64,000 nucleotides of DNA. Origin: Eledone cirrhosa. Taxonomy: Eukaryota. Location: contig OZ024744.1 of assembly GCA_964016885.1 (NCBI GenBank), positions 53,320,001 to 53,384,000 on the forward strand. The letters run 5' to 3'. The translations under genes were made by a program, and so were the position numbers. Below are positions 3,001-64,000 of this stretch, in pieces (within the stretch, counting starts at the first letter, position 1; the number at the start of each line of letters is the position of its first letter). The notes below the pieces were generated by a model. The model was not told the origin of the DNA. It ran no database searches and worked only from the letters and a program-made list of their open reading frames with translations.

Positions 3001-4162
3001 GGAAGGGACGCGCTCCGTTGGTCAGGCGGTCCATCTGCTGTCAACACCCGCTACGTAGAGGGCTGGGCATGCCGTGACTGATGATGCGCAGACACGCGCT
3101 CAGGCTACGACATCTCCACCTCTTCCTCGACGATGATCAGGTGTGGTCGCTGTTTGCTAGACACGTATTTCCCCAGCTCGTTTCCTTGACGGAGCTGCAG
3201 TCCTGGGCCATGCGAAGACCGAGAGGGAGCGCTCACAGCCCTCGACCAATCGGGCAATGTGATCGGTGGAAACTCCACCTCGACGTTTTATAGAGGATGA
3301 GTGGAGGGGAAGAGCGACGACGTACTTGGGGAAACTCTAGGCGTCGACGAAAATCAACTAGCCAATCTCTTCGGAAGGACTTTCGGGCCGGGGCCTATGG
3401 ACAACTTCCAGAAATCCCTGGCCTGGCAGTGCTACCGAGGAGCTTTGCCAGTTCGGGATAAACTCTACAGGCATGGAGGTGCCGCCAGCCGGGCATGTCC
3501 GAGATGCGCGCAGGATGACGAAAGCGTTCTGCACGCACTCGTCCAGTGTCCGAGCATTGCTGACTTTTGGGTTTATGTCGAACACCTGCTGTCACGTGTA
3601 GGACGGATCCAGCTATCAGCTGAGTCCATTGTGAGGATTGCGCCGCTCTCTTCCTTTAGCCGGGAAGGGCAGGCAGTTTTTATCTGCCTGGTGGCCATGG
3701 CGAAAGAGATAGTATGGTGGACACGTTTGAAAGGGCTGAAGACGAGCACTTACCTCTTCGGTGATGCCCTGAGTAACTTTTTCATATTTCATTTGAAAAG
3801 GAAAATCAGGGTAGAGAGTGAAGTGCTCTCTTCCCAGCATTTTGTTGGAAGATGGGTGAGAGAAGCAAGAATGGCCCGAGTGAATGGGCCTACTCTGAGT
3901 ATGTGTCTGTAAATTAAAGGTGGAAAACTGGGAGAGAGCACTTGCCCTGGTGGTCAGGGTCACTGTGGTCTTTTAATGAGCTTTCTCCACAAATGTCCCT
4001 CGGCAGTATCCCCCCTATTGGGGAATTTTTCATTGTTATTTTTTATTACATCCTCTTGTTTTGGGTTTTTTACACGCATAAATGCCCATTTGTACCGTCC
4101 TGTATTGTCCTGTACTGTCCTTAATGTCTACTTTATGTAAACCCTTGTAGTTAATAGAGAAG

Positions 4163-4163
<1 letters not shown>
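1..4163 (+). mobile_element. Tx1/L1-clade non-LTR retrotransposon, family Tx1-A, copy 1 (degenerate; 5' end outside the window)
   Basis: ORF1 remnants (380-811, CVVCGEGTH knuckle). APE pieces (AISET, LVGD, YTDH). RT remnant GCPLSSLLY...AYADD with the RT core deleted near 2450. C-terminal CPRC..LHALVQC in ORF 3301-3912. The 3' UTR ends AATAGAGAAGC followed by (ATT)n. Collinear with 30732-36437. Confidence 0.93.
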
Positions 4164-4211
<48 letters not shown>

Positions 4212-4218
4212 GTTATTA
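4164..4218 (+). repeat. (ATT)n microsatellite junction between tail-to-tail Tx1-A and Dong-A
   Basis: Direct reading of the sequence. Confidence 0.97.
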
Positions 4219-6830: not shown

Positions 6831-6849
6831 ATTATTATTATTATTATTA

Positions 6850-9800
6850 CAGATGCATTTATCTTGCTTTATGTTCATACGAGTTATCACCAAGTCACAA
6901 CCAGTGACCTCAAGAGACAACAAGGTCCGCCATGTTCAAGAAAGAACATACATATTCACACATGCATCTTTAGTGTTTAGACTTGTGATGTACTTATATT
7001 GACAGAATCTTCCTTAGTATATGGGCAGTTCCCATTAGTACTATCTTTTGTATTTCTCCTATACGCGGGTTTCCTGGGATTTGCGATAACTAGTCATTAG
7101 ACCCCTTAGGTATCATTCCCAGAGCGCCTACAACCACTGGTATTGTTTTAGTTCTCAATTTCCACATTTTTCCAATTTCTATCTCCAGGTCCTTATACTT
7201 GCTCAATTTTTCAAATGTTTTTATAGGTACATTCTTGTCTATTGGAACAGACATATCAATTAGCAGGCATACCCTCTTTTGAAAGTCCTTCAATATTATA
7301 TCAGGTCAATTTGCATCTATTTTTCGGTCTGTTTGGATGCTAAAGTTCCACAAGATTGAAATGTGATCTTTTTCAAGTATGGGAGGTGGTTGATGCTCCC
7401 ACCAATTCTTTTGATGGGGCAGGTCAAAATGCTTACACATTATCCAATGTATGTATTGTGCAGCTCTGTCATGCCTGTTTAGGTATTCGGTTGGAGCTAT
7501 AGGACTGCACATTGAAATTATATGGTCAATGGTCTCTGGTTGTTTTTTGCATACACGGCATAATGGGCTGCACCCATTTTTTATTATGTTGGCTTGGTAA
7601 TTTTTTGTTGGCAGACACTGATCTTGTGCGGATATAATCAGTCCTTCAGTCTCCGATTTCAGTCCAGAGGATGCCAACCACTGATGGGTTAAAGTTTTGT
7701 CAACATCAGGATTGTTAGCTCGCTCTGGGTATTTTCCATACAGAGGCTTTTCTTGCCATTTCTTAGCCAGTTTCTGTAGCAGTTCTTTCTTTGCAGTTAC
7801 TTTTACCTGCTTTGCTTTTTCTGTGTTTTCCATTTCAGCAGTAAATGGGACTTCTGAAATTTGTAGTCCATTACTGTATCTTTGTGCATCTTTTGTAATG
7901 GAATATGATCTTTTGATGCTTTCGTGTTTCAAAACGAGTTTGATCATCCAATCATGTGATTCCCTTAGATATGTAGATAATCCAATTGTTGCAGTTTTCA
8001 ACGCAATGTCTAACTGGATTAACCCACGTCCTCTTTCTTTCCTAGGGAGATATATTCTATCTATATCTGCCTTAGGGTGATGCATTCTGTGCATGGTTAA
8101 GAATTTTCGAATTTTTGTATCGAGCCTACGGATCTCTGTGCTTGACAAGTTGATGACATTGTAACTGTAGGTTACTACTGGTATGGCAAGCGTGTTTATG
8201 GCATAAATCCTATTCCTTGCATTCAATTCCGTTCTTAAGATTGCTCTTACTCTGCGGTAACATTCCTTCCTTATCCTTTCCCTCATTGTCGAGTGCTTGA
8301 TTCCGTCTCCTTCACAAACACCTAGATATTTGTAAGTTTTTTCTTGATCAAGTTCTCTTATCATGTTCCCCCGATCAAGATTAATGTCTGAACTCTTCAG
8401 CAGCTTTCCTCTGGTGAACGTTGCTTTGGCGCATTTATCTAGTCCAAACTCCATTTTAATGTCATCACTGAACTGCTTCACAGTGGATAATAGCCCTTGC
8501 AATTGTTCATCATTTTTTGCAAATAGTTTCAGGTCATCCATGTAGAACAGGTGATTAATGGTTTTGTCATAGACTTTATATCCATGTTTTGTTTCATTGA
8601 GCATTTTACTTAATGGTATAAGCGCGATGCAGAATAAAAGCGGTGATAAAGAGTCACCCTGAAAAATTCCACAATTAATATTAACTTCTCCAGCTTCCAG
8701 TGATTTTGTTTCACTATTCAAAATGAGTGTCGTTTTCCATGTCTTCATACTGAATGACAAAAACCTCCTGACAACGGGGGATATTTTGAAAATCTCAAAA
8801 CATTTTTCAATCCAACTGTGTGGCAAACTATCGAATGCTTTTTTATAATCTATCCAAGCAATCGATAGATTTTTGTGTCTATTATGACAATCTTCCAGTA
8901 TCATTTTGTTAACCAGAAGCTGATCCTTACAGCCATATGAGCCTCGTTTACACCCTTTCTGCTCAATGGGAAATAGGTCATTTGTTATCAGGTGGTCATA
9001 TGTGTATTCAGTTAGGACTGATGTTAAAATTTTATTCATTGTGGTCAAGCAAGTTATCGGTCTGTAATTTTTGGGATTGTTTGTCTCATCATTCTTCGGA
9101 AGCAGGAATGTAATGCCGTTAATTAGCCATGATGGTATCTTTTCTGGCTCCTTAACTATTACATTGTAAAGCTGGGCTAACAGCTCATGAGACTCTGTGA
9201 AGGCATTTATCCAAAAGTTTTGTATTTTGTCTTTTCCTGGGGATTTCAATTTGCTGGTTTTTCTTAGAGCCAAGCGCAACTGTTCAACTGTTATATTTTC
9301 CCATGTTTGTTCCTCAAGGTGAGCTGTATCTTTCATTTGTCTGTCTGTCCATGGGGCATGTATGTTATGAACTTTTTCTTCGGCCCAGATCTTTTCCCAG
9401 AATTCTTGCACTTCCTCCTTGGGTGGTATTGATTTAGCAGTTATTGTTGACTTACCAATTTTTCTGTAGAAGTTTCTTTGGTTGTTTTTGAACATATTAT
9501 TGTCCTTATAGAATCTAGATCGTTTTTCAAGGCGCCTTATACGAGCAGCTTTGGCCGACACTTTTTGCTTGATTATTTCTATCAGCATGTCTATGTCACA
9601 TGTTGATTTTATACTGTACTTTTTTTTCAATTTTCTAAGTTTAGTTTGTTTAACATGTTCACCTACTTTATAGTTTGTTAAAATTTCTATGTCAGATCGG
9701 AGAAGGTTTATTTGGCGATTGATGTTCTCTTGCCAAGTAGATTTCTTGTGGGAATTCCTTTGTTTTTTCATCTTCACTCCACATAAGTGAGTGGTGACTT

Positions 9801-10231
9801 TAGCCGATGCATAATAGAGATGATTGAAATCAGTAATGTTTAGTTTGTTTGTGATGATAATGTTTTTGAGAATTATGTTAGTCTTGTGTATTATCTTTTG
9901 GTTCTGTTTGGAGTTCTGGATCTTAGGGAGGGTGTCTCGTTGCCCCATGTCAGATTCTTTCATTTTCATCCATTCGATCATAATTTCATCCTTCAAGTTG
10001 GCAAGTTCATTCTCATTCATTTCTTTATCATTTACGATCTCATTATTTTCATTTGGAGTTTCATCCTGAGCATGCACTCCCTCCACTTTTTCGATCCTTT
10101 CTTTAATTTGTTCTGTTGCCAGTGATTCCGCCCCAACCCTGGGATTCGAAGTGTTACAGTTTACCTCGTTTTCACTGACACATATTTCATTTTCCCTTCG
10201 CTGACTTTGTGCTAATAGCTTGATCTGATCA

Positions 10232-10234
<3 letters not shown>
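6850..10234 (-). mobile_element. R4/Dong-like element, family Dong-B, 5'-truncated
   Basis: 926-aa ORF 7306-10086 ([42 protein letters not shown]). A frameshift near 7306 is followed by the RLE tail to the stop at 6994. Distinct 3' UTR. ATT tracts at 6831-6849 and 10235-10283. Confidence 0.95.
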
Positions 10235-10274
<40 letters not shown>

Positions 10275-10283
10275 GTTGTTATT

Positions 10284-10982
10284 CCTTGAATCTCAGTCAT
10301 TGATGTTGGTTAACTGGAAAGTCCGTTGGAATGAATATCAAGCCACTACCTGCAGCCTCAGATATTCAGGACGTATCGGAGGGTTCTTGCTGTTCCAAGC
10401 AAGCATGCCTTTTGAAGCGTTCCAAAAAGCGTGAAGGGGCCGATTTTCTTTAACCATCCCTGGAAACTTTTGGAGATAGTCCCCAGTGCGCCTATGACAA
10501 TCGGGATCACTTTGACTTCATGGCAGTTCCAAATCCTTTTCACCTCCCACTTTAGGTCCTGGTATCGGTTAATTTTCTCCCTCTCCTTCTCTTGCACTCT
10601 CGTGTCGAACGGGCAGGCCACATCCACAATCAGACACGATCTTTTTTCTTTGTCCACAACCACCAGGTCAGGTCTATTGTGTTCCAGTTTTTTGTCCGTC
10701 TGTATCCTAAAATCCCACAGCATCTTCACCTGATTGTTCTCCATCACCGCCTCCGGCCTATGCTCATACCATTTCTCAGAATGTGGTAAATTGTTTACTT
10801 TGCACAGGTGCCAGTGGATCACCCTGCCCATCACATCATGTCTCCAGCCCTTATAGTGGGTCTGGGCTAGGTGTTTACACTCGGACACAATGTGAGCCAC
10901 AGTCTCCTCTCTCTCTCCACAGATCCTGCACAGTGGGCTAGCCTCCTCCTTGTAAATATGGTGCTTCAACCACTTCGTTTTT
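10284..10982 (-). mobile_element. Dong-A 3' fragment (zinc knuckle + RLE + 3' UTR)
   Basis: Near-identical to the 3' end of 36887-40444. ATT tracts on both sides. Confidence 0.95.
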
Positions 10983-11027
10983 ATTATTATTATTATTATT
11001 ATCATTATTATTATTATTATTATTATT

Positions 11028-12830
11028 TGCATTTATCTTGCTTTATGTTTATACGAGTTATCACCAAGTCACAACCAGTGACCTCAAGAGACAACAAGGT
11101 CCGCCATGTTCAAGAAAGAACACACATATTCACACATGCATCCTTAGTGTTTAGACTTGTGATGTACTTATATTGACAGGATCTTCCTTAGTATATGGGC
11201 AGTTCCCATTAGTACTATCTTTTGTATTTCTCCTATACGCGGGTTTCCTGGGATTTGCGATAAGTAGTCGTTAGACCCCTTAGGTATCATTCCCAGAGCG
11301 CCTACAACCACTGGTATTGTTTTAGTTCTCAATTTCCACATTTTTCCAATTTCTATCTCCAGGTCCTTATACTTGCTCAATTTTTCAAATGTTTTTATAG
11401 ATACATTCTTGTCTATTGGAACAGACATATCAATTAGCAGGCATACCCTCCTTTGAAAGTCCTTCAATATTATATCAGGTCTATTTGCATCTATTTTTCG
11501 GTCTGTTTGGATGCTAAAGTTCCACAAGATTGAGATGTGATCTTTTTCAAGTATGGGAGGTGGTTGATGCTCCCACCAATTCTTTTGATGGGGCAGGTCA
11601 AAATGCTTACACATTATCCAATGTATGTATTGTGCAGCTCTGTCATGCCTGTTTAGGTATTCGGTTGGAGCTATAGGACTGCACATTGAAATTATATGGT
11701 CAATGGTCTCTGGTTGTTTTTTGCATACACGGCATAATGGGCTGCACCCATTTTTTATTATGTTGGCTTGGTAATTTTTTGTTGGCAGACACTGATCTTG
11801 TGCGGATATAATCAGTCCTTCAGTCTCCGATTTCAGTCCAGAGGATGCCAACCACTGATGGGTTAAAGTTTTGTCAACATCAGGATTGTTAGCTCGCTCT
11901 GGGTATTTTCCATACAGAGGCTTTTCTTGCCATTTCTTAGCCAGTTTCTGTAGCAGTTCTTTCTTTGCAGTTACTTTTACCTGCTTTGCTTTTTCTGTGT
12001 TTTCCATTTCAGCAGTAAATGGGACTTCTGAAATTTGTAGTCCATTACTGTATCTTTGTGCATCTTTTGTAATGGAATATGATCTTTTGGTGCTTTCGTG
12101 TTTCAAAACGAGTTTGATCATCCAATCATGTGATTCCCTTAGATATGTGGATAATCCAATTGTTGCAGTTTTCAACGCAATGTCTAACTGGATTAACCCA
12201 CGTCCTCCTTCTTTCCTAGGGAGATATATTCTATCTATGTCTGCCTTAGGGTGATGCATTCTGTGCATGGTTAAGAATTTTCGGATTTTGGTATCGAGCC
12301 TACGGATCTCTCTGCTTGACCAGTTGATGACATTGTAACTGTAGGTTACTACTGGTATGGCAAGCGTGTTTATGGCATCGATCCTATTCCTTGCATTCAA
12401 TTCCGTTCTTAATATTGCTCTGACTCTGCGGTAACATTCCTTCCTTATCCTTTCCCTCATTGTCGAGTGCTTGATTCCGTCTCCTTCACAAACACCTAGA
12501 TATTTGTAAGTTTGTTCTTGATCAAGCTCTCTTATCACGTTCCCCCGATCAAGATTAATGTCTGAACTCTTCAGCAGCTTTCCTCTGATGAACGTGTCTT
12601 TGGCGTATTTGTCTAGTCCAAACTCCATTTTAATGTCCGCACTGAACTGCTCCACAGTGGATAATAGCCCTTGCCATTGCTCATCATTTTTTGCAAATAG
12701 TTTCAGGTCATCCATGTAGAATTAATGGTTTTGTCATAGACTCTATATCCATGTTTTGTTTCATTGAGCATTTTACTTAATGGTATAAGTGCGATGCTGA
12801 ATAAAAGCGGTGATAAAGAGTAACCCTGAA
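11028..12830 (-). mobile_element. Dong-B 5'-truncated copy
   Basis: 515-aa ORF 11168-12715 runs from MDD to the RLE C-terminus and is near-identical to 6850-8660. The 3' end abuts (ATT)n. Confidence 0.95.
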
Positions 12831-13069
12831 AAGTTTGGAACTCTTCCCCCGTTGATGGGCGTGAGCCCGAAATATTGGGATTAAATCTCCTCTACGGTAA
12901 CCCTTCTACCTTTGTTTTGTTTTCATTTTCATTTTCACTTTTCTCCTATTTCTCACTCACTTCTTACCTCGAGATTTCCCATCTGCATTGTTGTGGCTTT
13001 CTAAACTACATATTTTACACATTTCACAATGCTTCAAGCAAACTTTAACACCCTCTTATATATATATAT

Positions 13070-17000: not shown

Positions 17001-17047
<47 letters not shown>

Positions 17048-30200: not shown

Positions 30201-30704
30201 AGCCGGGAAGGGCAGGCAGATTTTATCTGACTGGTGGCCATGGCGAAAGACTTAGTATGGTGGACACGTTTGAAAGGGCTGAAGACGAGCACTTACCTCT
30301 TCGGTGATGCCCTGATTGACTTTTTCAAATTTCATTTGAAAAGGAAAATCAGGGTAGAGAGGGAAGTGCTCTCTTCCCAGCATTTTGTTGAAAGATGGGT
30401 GAGAGAAGCAAGAATGGCCCGAGTGAATGGGCCTACTCTGAGTATGTATCTGTAAATTAAAGGTGGAAAACTGGGAGAGGGCACTTGCCTTGGTGGACAG
30501 GGTCACAGTTGGCTTTTACTGGGCTTTCTCCACAAATATCCCTCCGAAGTCTCCCCCTATTGGCGAATTTTCATTGTTATTTTTTTGTTAAATCCTCTGT
30601 TTTTGTTTTTTACTCGCAGAAATGCCCATTTGTACCGTCCTGTATTGTCCTGCAGTGTCCTTAATGTCTATTTTATGTAAACCCTTGTGGTTAATAAAGA
30701 AATC
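27211..30704 (+). mobile_element. Tx1-A copy 2, 5'-truncated inside the APE domain
   Basis: APE motifs GDWN, SYLDRVF, TDH. RT motifs NFRPITLLN, LDQSKAFDRVDH, HGCPLS. zf-RVT in 29064-30230. Ends AATAAAGAAATC followed by (ATT)n. Confidence 0.94.
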
Positions 30705-30731
30705 ATTATTATTATTATTATTATTATTATT

Positions 30732-33700
30732 GGCGACCTACGTAGTAAATCGTATCATTGTGAGCTCCGCAAAAGTTTGTTATTTTCAGTTGTTTAAAAT
30801 TGCCATTTATGGAAAAATTTTATCGTTAACTGTATATAAGTGCACATACATTGATTTCTGAAAGGGCACTCAAAAATATTGGGTCTTGAGCCCAAAATTT
30901 AAACTTTTTATAATTATCAAACAAAAATTTTTCTTTGAAAAATCATGGGTGTCTCAAAGTCACTCCTTCCTCACAGTCTAACACCTCACACCGACACCAC
31001 CATTGTAAATATTGCTACGTTTGCCAACACTGGAAATGAAAGCAGTAGCAATATTTTAAATTTGTCTCAGGCAGACGTTTATTTACCGCCATTACCAATG
31101 ACTGCAGGTGTTAAAGCCGCCACCACCACCACCACCGCGACAACACCCTCCTCCCACCACCACCTCCACAGCGACAACAGAAACAAAAAAAAAATTAACT
31201 TGTGATATCGAAATGAATTCAACCAAAATGAACTCTTCCACACCGAACACCACTGACGCCACCACCACAACTGAAACTAAAATTAACAATAGCAAAAATA
31301 ACGATAACAACAACAGCAACAATGAAATTAAGAAAACTACCCTGAGTTTTGCCAGAGTAGCAAAAACGTGCGAAGCGATCCAGGTAACTCAGGAGGAATT
31401 AGAAGAAGCCAAAGGAATGGTAAAGAAAGATGGGTACAGGGTCAGCCCTCCCCCCCCCCACACACACACCTAATAAAATGGAGCAACGTCGCCTATGCAC
31501 CGTGTCTTATCGGACAATTAACATAAAATCGCGCCGAGTGGCACGGGCATCGGAGTCCCAAATCCAAAAAGCTTTGGGACATGTGTGGGCAAAAAAAACC
31601 CACATCAGACGTAGGCAGAAGTATGGAACCGTGGAAGTGTTCTTTGAAACACCACAGGAGGCCAGAGAACACTCCATGGCCCCATTAAGAAGTGACGACT
31701 TCACACTTGTCCCAAGCTATTGTGGCCAGAGACTTGTGAAGATCAGGGTAACCCACGTTCCACCGGCCATCGAAATTCCCTGGCTAATGGCTGCCGTCCT
31801 CGCCAGCATCGAGGCCTTAACCAAAATAATTGAAATAGCAAAAGAAATGCAGGAGAACTGGTCCAAGCGGACCATAAAAGCATTGAGGAGATCCCAGGGG
31901 TAATAGACCTCACTGACGGCAGCCACCTCACCGTAATTGTCGAGGGCAGAAGACCTAGGTGTGTCGTTTGTGGTGAAGGAACCCACCTAAGGGCTTTCTG
32001 CCCTCAGGCTAAAAGGTTGAGGCCACCTCTCTTACCCACACCAGTGACTCAACCATCAACACCACCAGCAGCAGAAATGGCAGCAACAACTGTAGCAGGA
32101 AAAACAGAAGCAACTGTAAGAGCAACAACCCCAGCAACAGTAGCAAAACCAACACCACCACCACCCAACGCGCCAGAACTAGCACCAGCGCCTACACCAT
32201 CCACCACGCCACAACCAAAACCAACGCCTGCGGAGTATTTTCCACTCCCCGGCTTATCGCAACTGGAGACAGATTGTGACAACGAGGAGTGGGAAACGGT
32301 ATCAGGAAAAAAAATAAAAATAAACCAAAAAAGAAAAAATTCTCTTCCTTCCCCCTCCAAAAACAAAATACAGAGGTAAACAAATAAATTAACAAACAAA
32401 AAAGTTAGGACAGATATGCCACCATCCACACCAGCATCACCAACCCCATTACCACAAATACCAACACCATCACCATCATTAACCCCAACACCACAAAAGT
32501 CACCAAAAAGCGTAACAGAAACAAACCCACAACAAACGCAAACAAAGCAAAACAACCAAAACGATACACACTACACAGTATTAAATTTGAACAACAACCA
32601 ATTATTACACTACATGCAACACAACACCAGCATCACAGAAAAAGACTACACAACAACCCAAAAGTTCACACCACTTCCACACATACAAATCAGTCGCATC
32701 ACACAGAAAACGTACACGACACTAAAACAAAAATTCCCCAAAGACATCAGAGGCTTCCGACAAACACTCCCCAGGAGGATTTATAAGGACATCCTTCCGG
32801 AGGAGGCCACAAGCAGTGAAAAGAATGGACAAGCCATCCTTCCTCTACGAGAAGTAAGGTAAGTGATCTTTCCCATCTTTTCCACTCCATTTCAACATGA
32901 CCTCTCTCAGAATAGGCAGAATAAATGCGCGGTGCTTGGGGTCGTCATGGAAGCAGGGCCACCTGCTCAACGACCTCAGGTCACTAAACATAGATGTAGT
33001 GGCCATCAGAGAGACCAGAATCTCCGAAGCACGGGTCTTCGCACAGATCTTCGGCGGCTACGATGTGTACGCATCTCCCAGCCGTCCGGAATCGGGGTGT
33101 GGAGTTGTTGTGCTTTTTCGGAGAGGTTTGGATCTTGCCATACGGGCCATCTTCCTGGACCCAGAAGGTAAGTGGGTGGTGCTAGACGTGACCAGCGGAG
33201 ACGGGCAAGCTTTCATGCTAGGGGCCGTCTATGCCCCGACCGGAGCAGGGCGGCCTGATTTCTTCCGGCGTCTGGAGACCTTTCTTGGAACGTCCCTCTC
33301 TTTAGTGTTAGTGGGCGACTGGAACGGGATCTTAGATGCACGCTGGGACTGTGTGGGATTAGCGGATAGAGGAGAAGGGTGCAAGACCCTCACCAACCTG
33401 CTCAGGCGTTTTGAACTGTCTGACAACTACCGATTGGATTTCCCGAAACTGCCAATGTGGACTTGGACGAATCGCATAGGGTCATCCAGATCATATCTAG
33501 ATAGAGTATTTTGTAGGGAAATATATAGGTCTAGCATAGGCTGTCCACAATTCAAGATAGTCAGCTACACTGACCACAAATTCGTGATTTGTGTGCTTGA
33601 CTTAGATAGGCTTCATAGACTAGGACCCGAATACTGGAAGCTAAACGCGTCCTTTCCAGCGCGCAAGGCCTACAGAGACCGGATTAGCGAACTAGTTAAG

Positions 33701-36435
33701 CGGGCGTTGACGGGGGCCATCGTCAACAACACGTGGTGGTTTGCTCTGAAAAGAGTGATTAGAATAGAATCCATTAGGTTTAGTAAGGCTTTAGCAATAG
33801 AGAAAAATAGAGCAGAGGGAGAACTAGTTAGAAAATTAGACGAGGCGCTTAGCAAAGGCAGCGCGACCGACGTACTTGCGGCGAAATTGGCCCTTGACGA
33901 ATTCTTCAATGCAAAGCACGAAGGCTGCGTTGTCAGAGCTAGGGTGCGTGCTCTCAGACACGAGGGGACGAAAGCCGTTCAATGGGCCCGAGTGGCGGAG
34001 GCGAGTCGTGGTAACAAAGCCAGGATCCGGTCTTTGGTGGACCACGACGGGCGCATGCTACTCGATCCCTGGCAAATGTGTGAAGCTTTTCAGCGACACT
34101 TCGCTCAGCTGTTCGGGAGCAGCGGTGGGCCAGGTCGAGGGATGGACTTTAGTGTCTACCTCGACGGACTGCCGCGGCTCTCGGCCACTGAGGCGGAGTG
34201 TTGCGAAAAGCCGATAACAGCCGCTGAAGTACGGGAGGCAATGACTGGCTGCACAAGGGGTTAATCGCCTGGTTTGGATGTTCTGCGCTATGAACTTTAC
34301 GTACAGATGCCAGACTTGTTCGGAGGCCTCTTGGCGGCCGTCTACTGCAACTGGCAACAGAACAGGGGATTTCCCAGCTCTGTGAGCCGAGGAGCGTGGC
34401 ACTGCTGAGAAAAGATCCGAACAAGGGGGATAACATAGATAATTTCAGGCTCATAACTCTGCTAAACACAGAGTTCAAGATTTTGGCCAAGGTGCTAGCA
34501 AAGAGGTTGGCGCTTGTCGTTGCTGGTCTGGTGGGAGAGGCGCAGACATGCGCCATTCCCGACAGATACACCCACGACAGCCTCCTCCATATGCGATACA
34601 TCGTAGAGAGGGTAGATAGGGAACCTGGCACGGGTGGGTCCTTGATCAATTTAGATCTGTCGAAAGTGAACGGTCACCTTCAGGAACCGTTCAACATCAT
34701 GCGTTCGGTCCGCCATGGATGTCCCCTCTCGTCCCTCTTGTACGTATTGACTCTCGAGCCATTACTGCGCAAACTGGAGACGTTGAGGGGCGTCCCGCGA
34801 GAACTAGGATGCGGAAGATCCGTATTAGCACATGCGGACGATGTCACCGTAGTGGTGTCGAACGCCAAACACATCGAGGCGATCGACACTCCACTAAGAG
34901 AATACGAAGCGGTGACAGGAGCAATGATTAACCAGGAAAAGTCAGTGGGCCTCCAGCTCGGCACCTGGAGAGGCAGGTCCATGCCGTCCAACAGCGTCGT
35001 CGGACGGACCGGTTAAATTGCTAGGGGTCTGGTTCGGTCCAGACCTCCAGACGGACAAAAACTGGGACGAGGTGACGAGCAGGGTGGCTTCTCTCACCCA
35101 GAAATGGGCCGAGAGGAAGCTATCCCTGAAAGGTCGACCGGAGGTGGCGAATGCGTACATCGCATCCGTCATCTACTACCGCCTGACCGTCGTACCTTGT
35201 CCTAAGCCCTGCCTGACTGCGCTGGAGCGTTTGCTCTTTCGCTTCTTGTGGAAGGGACGCGCAACGATGGTCAGGCGGTCCATCTGCTGTCAACACCCGC
35301 TAAGTGGAGGGCTGGGCATGCCGTGGCTGATGATGCGCAGACACGCGCTCAGGCTACGACATCTCCACCTCTTCCTCGACGGTGATCAGGTGTGGTCGCC
35401 GTTTGCTAGACACGTATTTCCCCAGCTCGTTTCCTTGACAGAGCTGCAGTCCTGGGTCAAGCGAAGACCGAGAGGGAGCGCCCTGAGACTGGAATGTCTT
35501 CAGGCGCTCACAGCCCTCGACCAATCGGGCAGCGTGATCGGTGGAAACTCCACCTCGGCGTTCTATAGAGGATTAGTGGAGGGGAAGAGCGACGACGTAC
35601 TTGGGGAAACTCTAGGCGTCGACGAAAATCAACTAGCCAATCTCTTCGGAAGAACTTTCGTGCCGGGACCTATGGACATGTTCCAGAAATCTCTGACCTG
35701 GCAGTGCTACCGAGGAGCCTTGCCAGTTTGGGATAAACTCTACAGGCATGGAGGTGCCGTCAGCCGGGCATGTCCGAGATGCGCGCAGGGTGACGAAAAC
35801 GTCCTGCATGCACTCGTCCAGTGTCCGAGCATTGCTGACTTGTGGGTTTATATCGAACACCTGTTGTCGCGTGTAGGACGGATCCGGCTATCATCTGAGT
35901 CCATCGTGAGGATTGCCCCGCCCTCTTCCTTTAGCCGGGAAGGGCAGGCAGTTTTTATCTGTCTGGTAGCCATGGCGAAAGAGATAGTATGGTGGACACG
36001 TTTGAAAGGGCTGAAGACGAGCACTTGCCACTTCGGTGATGCTCTGATTGACTTTTTCAAATTTCATTTGAAAAGGAAAATCAGAGTAGAGAGGGAAGAG
36101 CTCTCTTCCCAGCATTTTGTTGAAAGATGGGTGAGAGAAGCAAGAATGGCCCGAGTGAATGGGCCTACTCTGAGTACGTATCTGTAAATTAAAGGTGGAA
36201 AACTGGGAGAGGGCACTTGCCTTGGTGGTCAGGGTCACTGTGGCCTTTTACTGGGCTTCTCCACAAATGTCCCTCCGAAGTCTCCCTCCTATTGGGGAAT
36301 TTTTCATTGTTATTTTTTTGTTACATCCTCTGTTTTTGTTTTTTACACGCAGAAATGCCCATTTGTACCGTCCTGTATTGTCCTGCAGTGTCCTTAATGT
36401 CTACTTTATGTAAACCCTTGTTGTTAATAAAGAAA

Positions 36436-36437
<2 letters not shown>
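30732..36437 (+). mobile_element. Tx1-A copy 3, apparently full length (5' UTR, ORF1, ORF2, 3' UTR) but disrupted
   Basis: ORF1 about 30945-32862, frameshifted, with CVVCGEGTHLRAFC (CX2CX4HX4C) at about 31960. ORF2 32897-36187 in pieces 32897-34264, 34396-35016 and 35018-36187. (ATT)n at both ends. Confidence 0.95.
32897..36187 (+). pseudogene. Tx1 ORF2: AP endonuclease - RT - zinc finger
   Basis: INARCL, AIRET, GDWN, YLDR, TDH, HGCPLS, HADD, CPRC..HALVQC. Stop at 34262, frameshifts, and a deletion at about 34665. Confidence 0.92.
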
Positions 36438-36473
<36 letters not shown>

Positions 36474-36540
36474 GTGCAAGGCCAACAATTACCCAGTAAT
36501 GCACTGGGTAATTTCTGGCCTTGTGCCTAATGTAGTAACA
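36474..36540 (+). mobile_element. SINE 3'-end stub folded into a palindrome, inside the ATT array
   Basis: GTGCAAGGCCAACAATTACCCAGT-AATGC-ACTGGGTAATTTCTGGCCTTGTGC. The tail GGCCTTGTGCCTAATGTAGTAACA+(ATT)n matches the SINE tails at 42.7-43.2 kb. Confidence 0.7.
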
Positions 36541-36564
36541 ATTATTATTATTATTAGTATTATA

Positions 36565-36856
36565 GTTGCATTTATCTTGCTTTATGTTCATACGTGTTAA
36601 CAACCAAGTCACAACCAGTGACCTCAAGAGACAACAAGGTCCGCTATGTTCAAGAAAGAACATACATACTCACACACGCATCTTTAGGTGTTTAGACTTG
36701 TGATGTACTTATATTGACAGAATCTTCCTTAGTATATGGGCAGTTCCCATTAGTACTATCTTTTGTATTTCTCCTATACGCGGGTTTCCTGGGATTTGCG
36801 ATAAGTAATCATTAGACCCCTTAGGTATCATTCCCAGAGCGCCTACAACCACTGGT
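36565..36856 (-). mobile_element. Dong-B extreme 3' fragment
   Basis: PVVVGALGMIPKG..LRKILSI plus the Dong-B 3' UTR. ATT on both sides. Confidence 0.93.
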
Positions 36857-36886
36857 ATTATTATTATTATTATTATTGTTGTTATT

Positions 36887-39800
36887 CCTTGAATCTCAGT
36901 CATCGATGTTGGTTAACTGGAAAGTCCGTTGGATTGAATATCAAGCCACTACCTGCAGCCTCAGATATTCAGGACGTATCGGAGGGTTCTTGCTGTTCCA
37001 AGCAAGCATGCCTTTTGAAGCGTTCCAGAAAGCGTGTAGGGGCCGATTTTCTTTAACCATCCCTGGAAACTTTTGGAGATAGTCCCCAGTGCGCCTATGA
37101 CAATCGGGATCACTTTGACTTCATGGCAGTTCCAAATCCTTTTCACCTCCCACTTTAGGTCCTGGTATCGGTTAATTTTCTCCCTCTCCTTCTCTTGCAC
37201 TCTCGTGTCGAACGGGCAGGCCACATCCACAATCAGACACGATCTTTTTTCTTTGTCCACAACCACCAGGTCAGGTCTATTGTGTTCCAGTTTTTTGTCC
37301 GTCTGTATCCTAAAATCCCACAGCACCTTCACCTGATTGTTCTCCATCACCGCCTCTGGCCTATGCTCATACCATTTCTCAGAATGTGGTAAATTGTTTA
37401 CTTTGCACAGGTGCCAGTGGATCACCCTGCCCATCACATCGTGTCTCCAGCCCTTATAGTGGGTCTGGGCTAGGTGTTTACACTCGGACACAATGTGAGC
37501 CACAGTCTCCTCTCTCTCTCCACAGATCCTGCACAGTGGGCTAGCCTCCTCCTTGTAGATATGGTGCTTCAACCACTTCGTTTTGAGGGCCTGCTCCTGC
37601 GCAGCCATTAGCATTCCTTCTGTAGCCTTTTTGAGGTCTCCTCTTCTCAACCAGTTCCATGTCTGTGGATCTCTAAATTCAGTTTTCTCAAAGAAGGTAC
37701 TATGAAGGGGTTTTCCCTTAAGGCTGCTCTTCCTCCTTGATGTTATTTCCTCCCTGGACATCCCCTGGCCTACTGTCCCCTCCTTCAGTACAGCTCTGAG
37801 CATTGGCTCCTTACTATAGGTCACGTATTTGTATAGGTTGTTTTTCTCCATCTGAACACAGTCCTCTATGCTGATAAGACCTCTTCCACCCTCAGATCTC
37901 CTTAGGTAGAGTCTATCGACATCACTCCTCTTGTGGAACATGTTGTAGATAGTCAATAGCTTCCTAGTCTTCCTATCCATTTCTTTCTGTTCAGCAACAT
38001 TCCATCTCAGAATTCCCGCACTGTACCTAATAATAGACACAGCTCGGGAATTTACTGCGCTTATGGCATTTCTGCTGTTCAGATGTGACTTCAATACGCT
38101 CCTTACTCTCCGAATGTATTCAGTTCTTAACAATTCCTTCATTTTTTTGTTCTTTATGCCATCAGCCTCCAGAACGCCCAAATACTTGTATCCTTCCTCA
38201 GAGTCAATTTCCTTTATCATCTCACCTGTTGGTATCTGGATCCCGTTACTTCTGCTCAACCTACCCCTCTTCATCACAATGACTCCACATTTACCAATAC
38301 CAAACTGCATACATATATCACTGCTGAAAATACGGACAGTGTCAACAAGCACATCCAACTCCTTCTCACTTTTCCCGAAGAGCTTAAGATCGTCCATGAA
38401 GAGGAGGTGATTGATGGTAAGCTCTCCCCTTCCCAACTTGTATCCTGCTCTCACTTTTCGCAGCATAATGGTCAAGGGCATCAGGGCAAGGACAAACAAC
38501 AGAGGGGACAGGCTATCTCCCTGGAAGATACCTCTCTTGATCTTCACGCTTCCCAAGGATACTCCAGTTGATGTCAACTCTGTCTCCCAGGACCCCATAC
38601 TCCTGCCTAGCAACTGTCTGATGTTATCCGCCACCCTGAAGATCTTCAGGCTTTTGGTGATCCAGGAATGAGGCACCATGTCAAATGCCTTTCTGTAGTC
38701 TATCCATCCCATGGCAAGATCAGTGTGTCTCCTCCTGCAATTCCCCATTACCATCTTATCAATAAGCAACTGGTCCTTTGTACCACGTGACTTCTTTCGG
38801 CATCCTTTCTGTTCGTCCGGTAACAAGTTGTTTGTGTGGAGGTGATGGTAGATTTCCTCAGACACAATGCTCGTCAACAGTTTCCACATTACGGGCAGAC
38901 ATGTGATAGGTCTATAGTTGGTAACATCATTACCCTTGATTCGGTCTTTCATTATCAGAACTGTGGTACCTTTTGTCAACCACTCTGGCACCTCACCCGA
39001 CACCAAGCAGTCATTGAACATGGCCGTCAGCTTCGGGTGGAAGGATGTTAAATGTTTAATCCAATACCCCTGCACACCATCTGGGCCTGGTGATTTCCAG
39101 TTGGTTAGTTTTTTGGCTTGCCCCTTAAGAGTTTCAACTGTGATACTCAAATCAGTCTGTTGTTGTGCCTGCTCACCGATCTCCCTCTGTACTGTCTCAA
39201 TCCACCCTGCCTGGGCATTGTGTCTAACATCCTGCTCCCATATTCCTCTCCAGAATGTTTTAGTTTGCTCCGCCCCAGGGATCAAGTCATTGCCTCTTTC
39301 TTTGCCCTCAAGCTGTCCAAACAGCATCTTCTGGTTGTTGTCGAACATGCGGTTCTGACTGACTCTGTTCTCGTATCGCCTGATTTTTGCACTCTTTGCT
39401 ACAATGCGTTGCTTCAATTCCTCTATGATAATATTTAGCTTTTTACTCCTAGTTTTGTATTTTATTTCCAGTCTATTTTTAGTGCCTATGTTTTTTAGTG
39501 TCCCATTCAGTAGTGACTCAAGCTTTCCTATGTCATTTCTCATTTCCCCGATTTGCCCACTCAGTCGCTTCTTCCACCACGGCTCTGCTCTTTCTTGTCT
39601 GTTGTTTCCTCTCGCTTTTATACCAAGTAGTTTCCTCACCGTATTTGCTTTTGATCTGAGGATATTGTTGCACTGGTGAAGGCTCCTCGCCTCAAGGTAT
39701 GGGATGACTTTGTTTACCTTAGCTGTTGTTTCTTTTAACTTTTTCCTGTCTACAAATCTTAGGTTCATAGGTCTCCCACTATCATTGTTCAATTCATCTA

Positions 39801-40444
39801 CCACTAAATTTAGGATGTCAACCGAATCTTGTCCTAGCCCGTCAGCATTTATCTCCTCAGTGGTCGTATCTCTGTTCCAGGTATTATTTATCTCAGTACT
39901 CAGATCATTGTCTGCTTCGGGTGGTTCCTCCGTTCTCAGGACCTCCTCACCTTCATTTCCCACCGGCTCGCTTGTCTGGCATACTACACCCGCCATCTCC
40001 AAGCCATTCTCTCTGCTCAGTTCCTCCAGTTCCAGCTCGCTTATCCACCCATTAGTTCTTATTACCCGAGCCTGCCCGGCCAATTTTTCTTCATCTAATT
40101 TAAATAAACCAATCTCGTTCCAGATGTTATGCATCCGTCTCCTGTAGCCCCTCTCCTTGGGGTTACTTTTCAGGTAGCATTGCATAACAGTTCTATTCAA
40201 TTCTTTCGTCCAGTTGGTTCTGGCCCCTTTCCTTCTTCTCCTTCCTCCAACATCAGCAGTATTTGGTTGACAGTCAGGTTCCTGCTGCTGAGCCAGGGGG
40301 CACCTGTTGGGTGAGAGTCTGTCACATGACGTTCTAGTCTCCATTTCACCGTTATTCGAACTGTTTATGTTCGATATTTAAACACTCTTATCGAGGATTG
40401 GCGAATGTATGTTTACATAGCCATCTGTGGATCCGCAATCCCAC
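36887..40444 (-). mobile_element. Dong-A full-length copy with an open ORF
   Basis: ~100-nt 5' UTR, a single 1127-aa ORF and a ~75-nt 3' UTR, with (TAA)n at both ends on the element strand. Confidence 0.97.
36961..40344 (-). CDS. R4/Dong-clade polyprotein: N-terminal DNA-binding region, RT, CCHC knuckle, restriction-like endonuclease
   Basis: [78 protein letters not shown]-x8-HIVSEC, RHD, RPD..IVDVACP..K..RY.DL. Confidence 0.96.
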   Translation of the reverse strand: METRTSCDRLSPNRCPLAQQQEPDCQPNTADVGGRRRRKGARTNWTKELNRTVMQCYLKSNPKERGYRRRMHNIWNEIGLFKLDEEKLAGQARVIRTNGWISELELEELSRENGLEMAGVVCQTSEPVGNEGEEVLRTEEPPEADNDLSTEINNTWNRDTTTEEINADGLGQDSVDILNLVVDELNNDSGRPMNLRFVDRKKLKETTAKVNKVIPYLEARSLHQCNNILRSKANTVRKLLGIKARGNNRQERAEPWWKKRLSGQIGEMRNDIGKLESLLNGTLKNIGTKNRLEIKYKTRSKKLNIIIEELKQRIVAKSAKIRRYENRVSQNRMFDNNQKMLFGQLEGKERGNDLIPGAEQTKTFWRGIWEQDVRHNAQAGWIETVQREIGEQAQQQTDLSITVETLKGQAKKLTNWKSPGPDGVQGYWIKHLTSFHPKLTAMFNDCLVSGEVPEWLTKGTTVLIMKDRIKGNDVTNYRPITCLPVMWKLLTSIVSEEIYHHLHTNNLLPDEQKGCRKKSRGTKDQLLIDKMVMGNCRRRHTDLAMGWIDYRKAFDMVPHSWITKSLKIFRVADNIRQLLGRSMGSWETELTSTGVSLGSVKIKRGIFQGDSLSPLLFVLALMPLTIMLRKVRAGYKLGRGELTINHLLFMDDLKLFGKSEKELDVLVDTVRIFSSDICMQFGIGKCGVIVMKRGRLSRSNGIQIPTGEMIKEIDSEEGYKYLGVLEADGIKNKKMKELLRTEYIRRVRSVLKSHLNSRNAISAVNSRAVSIIRYSAGILRWNVAEQKEMDRKTRKLLTIYNMFHKRSDVDRLYLRRSEGGRGLISIEDCVQMEKNNLYKYVTYSKEPMLRAVLKEGTVGQGMSREEITSRRKSSLKGKPLHSTFFEKTEFRDPQTWNWLRRGDLKKATEGMLMAAQEQALKTKWLKHHIYKEEASPLCRICGEREETVAHIVSECKHLAQTHYKGWRHDVMGRVIHWHLCKVNNLPHSEKWYEHRPEAVMENNQVKVLWDFRIQTDKKLEHNRPDLVVVDKEKRSCLIVDVACPFDTRVQEKEREKINRYQDLKWEVKRIWNCHEVKVIPIVIGALGTISKSFQGWLKKIGPYTLSGTLQKACLLGTARTLRYVLNI

Positions 40445-40462: not shown

Positions 40463-40476
40463 TTAATAAAGAAATC
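40463..40476 (+). mobile_element. ~14-nt Tx1-A terminal stub embedded in (ATT)n
   Basis: TTAATAAAGAAATC is identical to the last bases of Tx1-A at 30691-30704 and 36424-36437. Confidence 0.7.
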
Positions 40477-40499
40477 ATTATTATTATTATTATATATGT

Positions 40500-41855: not shown

Positions 41856-42537
41856 TAAATATGGCCGCCTGCGGTTTATTGTGCTTTCCTTTTAGAAATA
41901 TATGATGAAAGTTTAAGCAAAGACAGGTAATTTAGAAATTAGTCAAATTGAACAAAAATAGAAGAAAAATGTTTTTTAGCTGACTCAAAGAATCCAATTT
42001 CCTTGATATACGAAATAGTCAGTAAATCAAAGTATATTTCTATACATGTTAGTCAGGTTTAAGTTATTTATTAAAATATTCCTCGTTTCATGAAGACAAC
42101 TGCCAAAGCAAACAAGTCGTGTGTTGAGGCAATGTTTCTCTGGATCTATTTGTCAGAGTATATACCATTTTTCAGAATTACAAAAGCGACAAAATATCGA
42201 CCATTCACATAGGTGGTAGATTTTTCTGATATCCTACATTTGATGCAAAAAAGTGTGCCATTGTTCTTAAGGCTCCATACATCATACGCGAGCTGGGTAA
42301 CGTGTATTTTGTCGGGATATCTAAAGTTTGTTTCGTGATTCAGGTCCAAGTTTCAGTTTGGTGGAGGTGACCTCTGATTGATATAACACCACTGGAGTGT
42401 TGCACAGTTGATCTAGTGGGTACGTACCTGGTCTTCTACATGAGTATCCGTACGGTGGGGGGCTTTTGTGTTTCCCGGTGATGTAGGATTTAGCAATGTT
42501 AATCGCCATACATTAAAAATAGGATACTCTTGCACTA

Positions 42538-43225
42538 AGGGCGGTGAATTGGCAGCATTGGTAGAGCGTCAGACACCATACTTTGCAGCATAGAGTTATG
42601 GTCCTTTACGTTCTTAGTTCAAATTCTGCCGAGGTTAACTTTACATTTCATCCTTTACGGGGTCGATAAAATAAAGCACCAGTAATAAACTGGAGTTGTT
42701 GCTGGCTTTGTGCCAAACGTAGAAACATTTATTATTTTTTCCCGCCGAGGTTAACTTTGCCTTTCATCCTTACGGGGTCGATAAAATAAAGTACCAGTAA
42801 TGTACATGGTGATTGCTGGCCTTGTGCCAATAGTAGAAACTATTATTTTTATTATTGTTATTGTTGTTACTGGCCTTGTGCTTATATTAGAAATCATTAT
42901 TGTTATTGTTGTTGTTGATGCTGTTGCTGTCGTTTTTGTTTTGGTTATTGCTATTATCGTTGTTTTTATTATTGTTGCTGTTTTTGCTATTGCCGTTGTT
43001 GTGGATTGGCAATATCGATAGATGGTCGGACGCCATGATTTGCAGCATAGAGTTACGGCCCTTTATGATCTGAGTTCAAATTCCGCCGAAGTTAACTTTG
43101 CCTTTCATCCTTACTGGGTCGATAAAATAAAGTACCAGACACGCACTGGGGTCGATGTAATCGACTTTCCCCTCTCCCAGAATTGATGGTCTTGTGCCTA
43201 TATAAGAAATCGTTATTATTATTAT
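42538..43225 (+). mobile_element. Cluster of tRNA-derived SINEs with ATT tails (about 42538-42734, 42741-42847, stub 42869-42900, 43005-43225)
   Basis: A box TGGCAGCATTGG and B box (G)AGTTCAAATTC. Shared body GCCGAGGTTAACTTTGCCTTTCATCC..GGGTCGATAAAATAAAGTACCAG. Tail GGCCTTGTGCC..AGAAA.(ATT). Resembles the abundant octopus tRNA-SINEs (from recollection, not searched). Confidence 0.85.
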
Positions 43226-53798: not shown

Positions 53799-53840
53799 CA
53801 TAAATACATACATAAATACATACATACATACATACATACA

Positions 53841-53876
<36 letters not shown>

Positions 53877-53897
53877 TACATACATACATACATACAT

Positions 53898-55029: not shown

Positions 55030-55110
55030 GATACCAGTATTTTATTTATCGGCCTCAAAAACATGAAGGGCAAAGTTGAACTCGGCGTGATTTGAACTCA
55101 GAATGCAGAG
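55030..55110 (-). mobile_element. tRNA-SINE fragment (same family as 42538-43225)
   Basis: Minus strand reads CTGAGTTCAAATCACGCCGAGTTCAACTTTGCCCTTCAT..CGATAAATAAA. Confidence 0.7.
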
Positions 55111-56121
55111 AGTTAGAACAATAAATTTGAAGCATTCTATTTGAAGTTCAAATGAATCTGCCAATCGGGTGCCTGAAAAAATAGATTACAGCAGATATAA
55201 AATAGTATAACTAACACTCTGTATATCAATAGCTGATATACAAACTGTAAAAACCTCAAGGTCGCAGTTCTCCATTTAATAGGAAATCTTAGAAAAATCA
55301 AGTCCTTAAATAAACGGTAAGAAGGCATGTAAATTGCATAATAATGAATGAGGAAACATCTTAAGACTGCTGCATACAACGAAAACATACCTAAATACGA
55401 GATCCGACTTTTGCAACCCATGACTCCATGTGGGGACACCCTGCATAACAACTATAGTTGCTATACTGTGTTTCAGAGGTATATCGCATTAATATACGCT
55501 ACGTATACTACAATCAACAGTGAAGGAGTGCTATTGTTGTCATGAGGAAAAAACTATTCTTTCCCCAGGTCATTCAAATATCTTTGGGGTGAGGCCTTCC
55601 ATGTCCATATATGCTGAAAATGAGGCAATGAAGATGATATCAATTGAACTGTCAACCATCTCCCGTGACGGAGCCATTTTATCTGTCGTATACCAACATA
55701 GATTAATTCTTTAAATTAATTTCAAGACATAACATTTCAAGACATTTCTTAATTATTATTTTAATCAGCCCTAAAGGATGGACAGATTTGGAATAGAATG
55801 ACTACAAGAAAGCGAAATATACATAAAGAAGAAGTCCAGTAAGTTTCTAGCGGCAAAACAAAAAAAAAAAAAATTGCACATCTGTTTACTTTGGCAGTAA
55901 ATTTATGAAATTAGTTCATTGTCGTATATTTAATGAAACATACAATGAAGCAAAAGCTGTTACCCAAGTAAATTAATAGGTGTGTGTGTATCAGTGTCTG
56001 TGTATGTGTTTACCTATCACATATATACGCAGAAATACCTACCTAACTACCTACATACATACATACATACATACATACACAAAATAGCACACACAGGCAT
56101 ACACACACACACATACACATG

Positions 56122-62474: not shown

Positions 62475-62870
62475 ATGTATATATATTTGCGAGTGTACGC
62501 ATTTGTGTGTAAGTGTGTGTGTAAGTATGAGCATTTATATACATACAACTATATTACCCGTCAAAATTAACGGAGTTCATTGCAAAAGATGTTAATTTAA
62601 TAAATCGTTAATTACAATAATGCAGCAGAGATGCTTGTATTCTAGGTCTTCTCTCTCTTGTCATTTCAGACGTCACTCTATTTCATTTTACATTTATTTA
62701 AATCAATTAGCATAATTTTCTTCCCTAATTACTTCAATTATCTTGAAACGTGTCTCTACTAAATTACAGTTACTTTGTTCTATCTACCTTCAGACTGCGC
62801 TGGGATTTGAGGTTTAATATTATTGTCGTTCTTGTGCAAAAGTAGATACATGTTTCAAGAAGAAGATCGA

Positions 62871-62897
62871 TAGATGTATAGATAGATGTATAGATAG

Positions 62898-62933
<36 letters not shown>

Positions 62934-62970
62934 ATAGATATAGATAGATAGATAGATAGATATATAGATA
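62871..62970. repeat. (GATA)n microsatellite
   Basis: Direct reading. Confidence 0.95.
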
Positions 62971-64000
62971 AGTTTATATTTATTTGCCACCAGGGCACAA
63001 AAGAAAGGGACAAATACAAGGGGGGGGGGTTACATACATTTAGAGGACGTGTAGAAAATATAACAAATAAAATTAAACAATCGAAGTCCTCAGTAGGGAG
63101 GGGGTTGACGTGGGTCGCACACAACCCCGAAAAATGTGCAACCCTCCTCCTCAGGAGCACAAAGAGTGGGTGCTCCCTTCCTCTCCTCCTTCTCCTCCTC
63201 TCGAACCTACAGGCTGATATAGATAGAAGGCCCATTCACTCGGGCCATTCTCGCCACTTTCACCCACCTTTTATAAAACATGCTGGGGTAGAGCACCTTT
63301 CTCTCCATTCTGATCCTTCTTCTAAAATGGTATTTGAAAAAAAGGACCAGTTGTTGGCCGGAGAGAAAGGTGTCTGACCTCATCCCTTTCAACCTCGTCC
63401 ACCATACAACCTCTTTAGCCATAGCTATCACACAGAGGAAAACCGCCTCTCGTTCATTTTTGACGGGGGGAGGCGGTTTGATCGTGACAATGTACTCGGT
63501 GGTCAACCGGATTGGTCCCACTCACGACTGTAGTCGTTGCACATAGCCCCACAGGTCAGCAACGCCCGGGCAGTGTACGAATGCATGCGCGACGGTTTAT
63601 CGTCGCGCACGTATCTCGGACAGATCTTTTTCGAGGCACCCCTACCCGAACGCCCGTGTCAGTAGAGCTTATCCCGATCGGGTAGAGCTCCTCGGTAGCA
63701 CTGTCAAGCCAGGGATTTTTGGAAGTTGTCCATCGGTCCCGGGCCAAACGTCCTACCGAACAGACTGGCTAGTTCGTCTTCCCCCATGCCCAGAGCTTCT
63801 CCGAGAGCGTCGTCGCACTTGCTGCGCACTAACCCTCTATAGAATGTCGAGGTGGAGTCTCCACTGATTGACGGATCCGCTCGCCAGAGGCCCGTGAGCG
63901 CCTGGGCACATTCAATGTGCCAGTCGCCCACTTTTCTCGGTCTTTGCTTGACCCAGGATTGCAGCTCTGTGAGCGAGACGAGTCTCAGAAAGGCTCGCCT
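62971..64000 (-). mobile_element. Tx1-like LINE, sister family (Tx1-C), 3' portion ending in (TATC)n
   Basis: ORFs 63704-63931 (FGPGPMDNFQKSLA) and 63207-63521 (AMAKEVVWWTRLKG..ARMARVNGP) are homologous to the Tx1-A ORF2 C-terminus. The 3' UTR is different, with AATAAA just before the repeat. Confidence 0.92.

Follow-up and report, generated by a model that had tools for sequence, protein, structure and literature searches.

A tRNA-type SINE in the octopod Eledone cirrhosa ends on a short stretch that resembles the 3' end of a nearby LINE, and both elements run from there into ATT repeats. Which LINE, then, copies this SINE, and does the SINE owe its association with ATT to that partner? The question is raised by a window of 64,000 nucleotides (the whole stretch of DNA analysed here), for which the first-pass annotation proposed that a sequence-specific Tx1 element mobilises the SINE and has handed down its ATT preference.

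Retroelements and microsatellites crowd the window, which is animal DNA, and positions 1-40500 form an array of LINEs whose units are joined by ATT runs. An ATT/AAT array at 4164-40491 hosts three LINE families in two polarities, with the family that we call Tx1-A on the plus strand and two R4/Dong-like families on the minus strand. A near full-length Tx1-A copy (30732..36473, plus strand) contains ORF1 pieces, an APE endonuclease, RT and zf-RVT in broken frames, a 3' UTR and (ATT)12, and its 5' flank is (ATT)9. The Tx1-A 3' terminus at 30683..30731 (plus) has CCTTGTG, AATAAA and GAAATC in that order, followed by (ATT)9, and closes a 5'-truncated copy at 27211-30704. A third copy (1..4218, plus), cut by the window start, has a variant terminus and an ATT tail, and an 11-nt terminus stub (40466..40491, plus) lies between two ATT runs. 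The R4/Dong-like LINEs, which served as negative controls, are B (36856..40444, minus), with an RT, a C-terminal restriction-like motif read from the translation and (AAT)n on its own strand, and the copies of C (6830..12835, minus), which match B at 38% of amino acids, have a B fragment between them and likewise carry an (AAT)n tail. Outside the array, a 5'-truncated RLE-type LINE (53798-54804), at 31% of amino acids to B, has (ACAT)n on both sides.

Is LINE A a Tx1 element? Its ORF2 encodes Exo_endo_phos (E 2e-11), RVT_1 and zf-RVT domains and ORF1 pieces are present as well, which is the Tx1 domain layout. Among solved structures its best relatives are human L1 ORF2 (E 2e-9), in keeping with an L1-superfamily affinity, and its RT agrees with the RTs of the Dong-like LINEs in the window at only 22-27%. 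ATT repeats stand on both sides of all four Tx1-A pieces, the 11-nt stub at 40466 among them, for which both junctions are visible, these being non-independent loci of a single array. We called the element Tx1-A because Tx1 and R1 are named as the only site-specific clades of APE LINEs (PMC6007223, in the part of that paper available), and a Tx1-type identity is likely, the placement being by domains and target rather than by phylogeny with named Tx1 elements. The nearest named homologue of its protein is from Argonauta hians (63-73% identity); no Tx1-named protein was among the homologues returned for LINE A, and an atlas search gave generic RT clusters only. One close relative of the Tx1-A protein (P0039) is filed under the name of a bacterial MAG, where it is likely host DNA.

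The SINE is 190-225 bp long and interspersed, with a high copy number and a simple-repeat tail. A full-length copy of a short subfamily (42538..42735, plus) has an A-box-like sequence at 42550, a B-box at 42617, a core, a CCAGT-N5-ACTGG hairpin and a tail at 42706-42727 with a short ATT run. It forms a 115-bp tandem with a 5'-truncated short-subfamily copy (42742..42850, plus; tail 42820-42841), and a 26-nt tail-only piece (42870..42901, plus; tail 42874-42895) lies between ATT/GTT repeats. The long subfamily differs by a 28-nt insert with a second hairpin; its full-length copy (43001..43225, plus) has an A-box-like sequence at 43007, a B-box at 43074 and a tail at 43190-43211 followed by (TTA)4. 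A-box-like sequences are thus present in both full copies, and the B-box pattern of each is restored only once the majority letters of the read population are applied. A tail stub (36474..36555, plus; tail 36519-36540) lies in the LINE array, and a diverged piece (55037..55160, minus) has neither a tail nor ATT flanks. The CCAGT/ACTGG stem is kept at 42679, 43135 and 36493 and in the loose ends of reads, with a 5-nt loop that varies freely. Neither ARAGORN nor Rfam reported a tRNA in the SINE, and Rfam reported no U1/U2 snRNA head; A and B boxes are found instead, with an ATT tail in place of poly(A). Where target-site duplications were sought, the flanks were simple repeats or other copies. 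The core may be of the Deu/Nin type. As a side observation, the 5' part of the stub is an inverted copy of its own tail (36474-36497 against 36503-36526, 20/24; z -6.1), with the native CCAGT-N5-ACTGG hairpin at the centre of the fold, which looks like fold-back of the cDNA at the hairpin rather than twin priming.

High-copy tRNA SINEs with a central core and a simple-repeat tail are familiar from molluscs, and in these respects the present family is like both the mollusc conserved-domain SINEs and the octopus tRNA-Deu and tRNA-CORE SINEs, the latter two being reported as the principal SINEs of octopuses (PMC11481361, PMC4824008, PMC8967140, PMC13282606). An assignment to the MetaSINEs, for which partners were unknown in 2016 (PMC4824008), is unsupported: a search of supplements did not turn up the core motifs in them, and the MESC lines listed look different.

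The terminal match was reproduced as first described. The Tx1-A end at 30683-30704 agrees with the SINE tail at 42874-42895 at 17 of 22 positions, ungapped, both stopping at the ATT run, and with the tail at 43191-43211 at 16 of 21, again ungapped and stopping at the ATT run. All five SINE tails (42706, 42820, 42874, 43190, 36519) are on the plus strand with ATT-type repeats after them, like the Tx1-A ends, so the shared polarity also held, as did the placing of a SINE tail stub within the LINE array (36474-36540, between (ATT)12 and (ATT)5). The two counts are the best of the five tails, the other three (42706, 42820 and 36519) giving 13, 13 and 15. The window consensus of the SINE tail gives 14, and the third Tx1-A end (4163), which is more diverged, gives 12-14. 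What is shared is a core of CCTTGTG, eight variable bases, AGAAA and two bases, then ATT. Columns that are invariant among the five SINE tails match Tx1-A at 10 of 11 positions, and those conserved in at least four of the five at 13 of 16. In the 30 bases upstream of the match nothing is shared (4-8 of 30 identical in the four copies tested). A scan of the 64 kb for the motif with one mismatch, using a motif picked after the match was known, gave seven matches (two Tx1-A ends and the five SINE tails) against 1.4 expected.

The three R4/Dong-like ends do less well. Those of B, C and the ACAT element agree with the SINE at 9-11 positions at their best offsets (B 9-11/22, C 9-10/22), in a comparison that covers the five LINE families of the window, with no CR1, L2 or RTE among them. 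Dong, of the R4 clade, is an element of TAA microsatellites (PMC3812793), and B and C use the same ATT/AAT array as Tx1-A but with opposite polarity and no terminal match to the SINE. ATT follows the SINE and Tx1-A, so that terminal repeat and orientation agree, and AAT follows B and C; with AAT rather than ATT polarity and ends at only 9-11/22, we rejected these Dong-like elements as tail donors.

How surprising is such a match? Per position, over 125,670 masked positions of the window, at least 14 matches occur at 1-2.4 in 10,000 and at least 16 at no more than 1.6 in 100,000. Among 200,000 shuffles of the LINE end, 14 matches with the short majority tail were reached 52 times and 16 with the long majority tail once. 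A harder null, whose sequences already contained AATAAA and ended A-rich, gave the same scores in 0.125% and 0.001% of 400,000 draws. Over the five LINE families of the window and seven registers, the expected number of chance matches is 0.007 at 14/22 and 0.0006 at 16/22. Octopus vulgaris, however, has 633 LINE families, including 176 RTE, 169 CR1 and 80 L1-Tx1 (PMC13282606), and over that many the expectation rises to 0.84 at 14/22 and 0.07 at 16/22. For the commoner tail, therefore, the match is unlikely locally, yet not unique genome-wide.

Whether 14/22 or 16/22 is the fair value depends on the SINE population rather than on the window copies. We aligned one raw RAD run (X24) and three contig sets, from three organisms, to 42510-43240 (731 bases). 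The SINE had been called abundant, and it is: 213,700 of 12,467,656 RAD reads in X24 matched, as did 157,892, 201,500 and 39,314 contig pieces. In the short tail the majority letter departs from that of the window copy at 42831 and 42841, and in the long one at 43190, 43210 and 43212, the change at 43210 being the majority in X24 and X1 only. The similarity to Tx1-A does not vanish at this level. It stands at 14/22 for the short tail and at 16/22 for the long one, or 17 if the change at 43210 is left out, and in the 40 of 117 variant rows listed the majority-letter motif is intact. Reads had to reach 80% similarity to the window copy, and all of these values, the 16/22 included, are therefore biased towards it. 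Mean depth in X24 was 19,166 over the short tail, 3,520 over the long tail and 466 over the 42874 copy. We take 14/22 as the fair headline.

A classical stringent SINE/LINE pair would share more than this. In bivalves the tails shared by SINEs and LINEs are 35-61 bp long at 72-95% identity (PMC11481361), and against a shared end of roughly at least 35 bp and at least 72%, detected by BLASTN at E 0.01 in that study, the present one spans 22 nt with 13-17 matches; in the majority tails it is only 22 nt at 64-73%. BLASTN (word size 7, E 0.01) of the long copy against the window found no terminal match beyond the ATT run. When two copies were compared in this way with eight stretches of LINE sequence at E 10, the Tx1-A end among them being the 36437 variant, the only terminal match was again the ATT run. 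Nor is a stem-loop shared: both CCAGT-N5-ACTGG and the second hairpin are missing from the Tx1-A UTR, and Tx1-A ends fold no better than shuffles (z -0.8 and -1.6). A common RNA hairpin as the link between SINE and LINE was rejected on that ground. With both defining tests (length by BLAST, and the stem-loop) failed, we do not file this as a classical stringent pair. Identity among copies is 92-95% for Tx1-A and 83-96% for the SINE, with few copies of each.

A second L1/Tx1-like family in the window, Tx1-D (62864..64000, minus), supplies an internal control. Its protein stands at 56-60% of amino acids to relatives of Tx1-A, and it has a (CTAT)n tail preceded by a related terminal motif. The (CTAT)n end possibly marks another microsatellite target, the 5' junction lying beyond the window. 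Between the two families the terminus is conserved at 15 of 19 positions, including 8 of 9 in a CCCT(T/G)GTGG element, whereas the remainder of the UTR agrees at 107 of 228. It is not the sole conserved spot, since one upstream 20-base block of the UTR is equally conserved (16/20). Tx1-D agrees with the short majority tail at 14/22 and with the long one at 12/22, its own tail beginning two bases later. The CCCT(T/G)GTGG motif thus looks like a lineage-wide Tx1-type terminus rather than one specific to Tx1-A. Because Tx1-D shares it, the clade gains support and Tx1-A in particular loses some; with Tx1-D tied at 14/22 on the commoner tail, Tx1-A was dropped as the uniquely indicated partner.

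The same comparison bears on the direction of the transfer. An ancestral Tx1 could have inserted in or beside SINE tails and adopted the last bases of the SINE for its 3' end. Insertion into other repeats is common among Tx1 families (PMC4494074), ATT runs are provided by SINE tails, and the array does contain a SINE stub. Against this, the terminus includes an AATAAA that belongs to the LINE, and it has a homologue in Tx1-D despite a different repeat tail, and no SINE sequence is seen upstream of the motif in Tx1-A. We consider such a reversal very improbable.

A more serious competitor is some LINE outside our sample, from the CR1, L2, RTE or I group, that has an ATT tail and resembles the SINE tail over a greater length, in which case the likeness to Tx1-A would be chance or convergence between UG-rich stretches with an A-rich end, and landing on ATT would come from pairing of tail and target rather than from a site-specific endonuclease. 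The SINE hairpins are conserved just 5' of the motif and absent from Tx1-A. Hairpins immediately upstream of a terminal motif are the layout of L2/CR1-type tails. Five LINE families were compared, none of them CR1, L2 or RTE, out of a repertoire that numbers 633 in O. vulgaris (PMC13282606), where about 0.8 chance matches at 14/22 are expected. CR1, L2 and RTE are reported to overlap the target with their 3' ends (PMC6007223), and the partners given for mollusc conserved-domain SINEs are CR1, CR1-Zenon, L2 and Nimb, with Tx1 mentioned 0 times in the available text (PMC11481361). On the other hand, the match to Tx1-A is in exact register, and it falls on invariant SINE columns and on an element common to two Tx1-like families. 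Moreover, the loose ends of reads, among the matches listed, are SINE variants, with no second element joining at the tail; the read alignment skipped the repeat stretch 42890-42998, and no 5' loose end was among the matches listed. We regard a partner from these other clades as a real possibility, though one that falls well short of even.

The idea of an inherited ATT preference fared unevenly. In its favour, four of the six SINE pieces have an NTT-rich 5' flank (backgrounds 0.002, 0.002, 0.005 and 0.04), among them the long copy at 43001..43225, which follows a degenerate NTT repeat; against it, three of these come from a single cluster, and one belongs to a tandem. The flank of the full-length copy at 42538 is not ATT-like, and this piece and the one at 55160 have ordinary 5' flanks with no ATT. 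Nor does sharing ATT require Tx1, because RandI-partnered SINEs also carry ATT tails (PMC3747384) and CR1, L2 and RTE already join tail to target in the manner cited above. Beyond the window, a search for further copies gave 0 matches in viral contigs and genome contigs, none in plasmids or phages, and four in metagenome contigs, three of which (L002-L004) had no SINE context and were dropped. The fourth, L001, an AT-rich contig, holds at 1100-1169 a homologue of the 3' half of the short subfamily, the upstream part of which scores above all 5,000 shuffles; its tail, after which there is no ATT run, gives 16/22, a value inflated by the pattern used in the search.

A homologous tail without ATT is one of the points that would suit a further reading, namely that the motif survives as a relic of an old tail of Tx1 origin and that the SINE now relies on its ATT repeats, to be copied by any relaxed LINE that primes there. 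The central eight nucleotides vary freely among copies, and SINEU is described as having no 3' terminus in common with its Tx1 partner (PMC4494074). The heptamer and its spacing to AGAAA are nevertheless fixed across subfamilies and sequencing runs, which suggests continuing selection, and we consider the relic unlikely.

Taken together, the comparisons make it likely that the SINE end is a worn copy of a Tx1-lineage 3' terminus, whose donor would be Tx1-A or an unsampled ATT-tailed sister. That a Tx1-lineage LINE copies the SINE in trans, the central proposal of the first-pass annotation, seems to us evenly balanced: the match on invariant columns and the conserved terminus argue for it, the shortness of the match, the lack of a common hairpin and the chance expectation over 633 families against it. 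Tx1-A is not singled out, Tx1-D reaching the same score with the commoner tail. That the partner is Tx1-A itself we regard as doubtful. These probabilities are judgements rather than computed values.

If a Tx1-lineage LINE is indeed the partner, Pol III would transcribe the SINE through its ATT tail, so that the transcript ends in AUU repeats, and the LINE ORF2 protein would bind this 3' end at or near CCT(T/G)GTG. The endonuclease would nick an ATT/AAT repeat, and the AUU repeats of the RNA could then anneal to the nicked strand, from which reverse transcription would start. Synthesis would often stop short of the 5' end and leave remnants such as the 26-nt SINE piece and the 11-nt LINE stub. 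SINE and LINE differ mainly across AATAAA, a poly(A) signal that, on a post hoc reading, would be dispensable for a Pol III transcript. More tentatively still, the Tx1 heptamer CCT(T/G)GTG immediately 5' of the poly(A) signal may be a stringent RNA mark that an octopod tRNA SINE captured; riding on an ATT-specific Tx1, the SINE might have become one of the largest repeat families of the genome and seeded ATT runs that feed both Tx1 and Dong.

Neither half of this proposal is without precedent. The first-pass annotation had noted that L1-group elements are usually regarded as relaxed and had inferred a SINE driven by Tx1. Both stringent pairs in the L1 clade and SINEs driven by Tx1 have been published before (PMC3747384, PMC4494074). 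In crocodilians, SINEU is inferred to be mobilised by the target-specific Tx1-Mar, whose target it shares (PMC4494074), much as we propose here for a SINE that uses a Tx1 and its target. SINEU differs in its U1/U2 head, its poly(A), its Mariner target and, in the text available, the lack of any LINE sharing the SINEU-1 3' terminus, while the present SINE has a tRNA-type head, an ATT tail, a microsatellite target and a short shared terminus. The pairs ZmSINE2/3 with LINE1-1_ZM and SINEX-3_CR with L1-1_CR, from maize, sorghum and Chlamydomonas, are stringent L1-clade pairs (PMC3747384). There, as here, a tRNA SINE ends like a member of the L1 superfamily, but the stretch in common is about 50-80 nt long and, in monocots, includes a covarying hairpin. 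Here it measures 22 nt and no hairpin is shared, the host is an animal, and the LINE is target-specific. The Tx1 elements Kibi (TC), Koshi (TTC) and those at TTCC/TTTC in crocodilians (PMC4494074, PMC3812793) are APE LINEs with one microsatellite on both sides and stacked arrays, as Tx1-A is; ATT (Tx1-A) and CTAT (Tx1-D) are not among the targets given for them there, and no SINE partner is named in those texts.

A published table of SINE/LINE pairs contains no Tx1 in the rows listed, and pairs Deu/Nin SINEs with CR1, L2, Crack and RSg-1 (PMC3747384). Our literature search, which covered the text of openly available papers, found no tRNA SINE that shares its 3' end with a Tx1, and a search by sequence motif returned nothing relevant. 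About 12% of the O. vulgaris genome consists of SINEs (PMC13282606), for which no partner LINE is named in the papers searched. Were a Tx1 partner confirmed, it would explain the ATT association and name the driver of octopus SINE expansion, and this would be the first tail-sharing pair of a tRNA SINE and a Tx1. Stringent 3' recognition, so far seen in the L1 superfamily in monocots and a green alga, would also extend to a target-specific clade of animals. With a CR1, L2 or RTE as partner, the finding would be ordinary. The 7-nt element common to two LINE families and the SINE offers a direct test, and we suggest that short tails of this kind may be missed by BLAST-based partner screens.

Finally, several features of the array merit mention for their own sake. 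The combination of SINE, Dong-R4, L1-Tx1 and Penelope-like elements resembles octopus annotations (PMC13282606, PMC8967140). An ORF1-only 5' part of another Tx1-like subfamily (25363-27210; ORF1 44-58% of amino acids to the other ORF1s) stops at (ATT)6 without the terminal motif, with a 5'-truncated Tx1-A directly after it; it may reflect a deletion, a template jump or a half-element. Two decayed Penelope-like pieces, 65% alike, lie on the minus strand at 13950-18100, with an RT match and a GIY-YIG-type end read by eye, and a pair of 808-bp inverted repeats, 96% identical (15814-16618 and 20398-21202), flanks a Penelope-like piece at 17527-20106.
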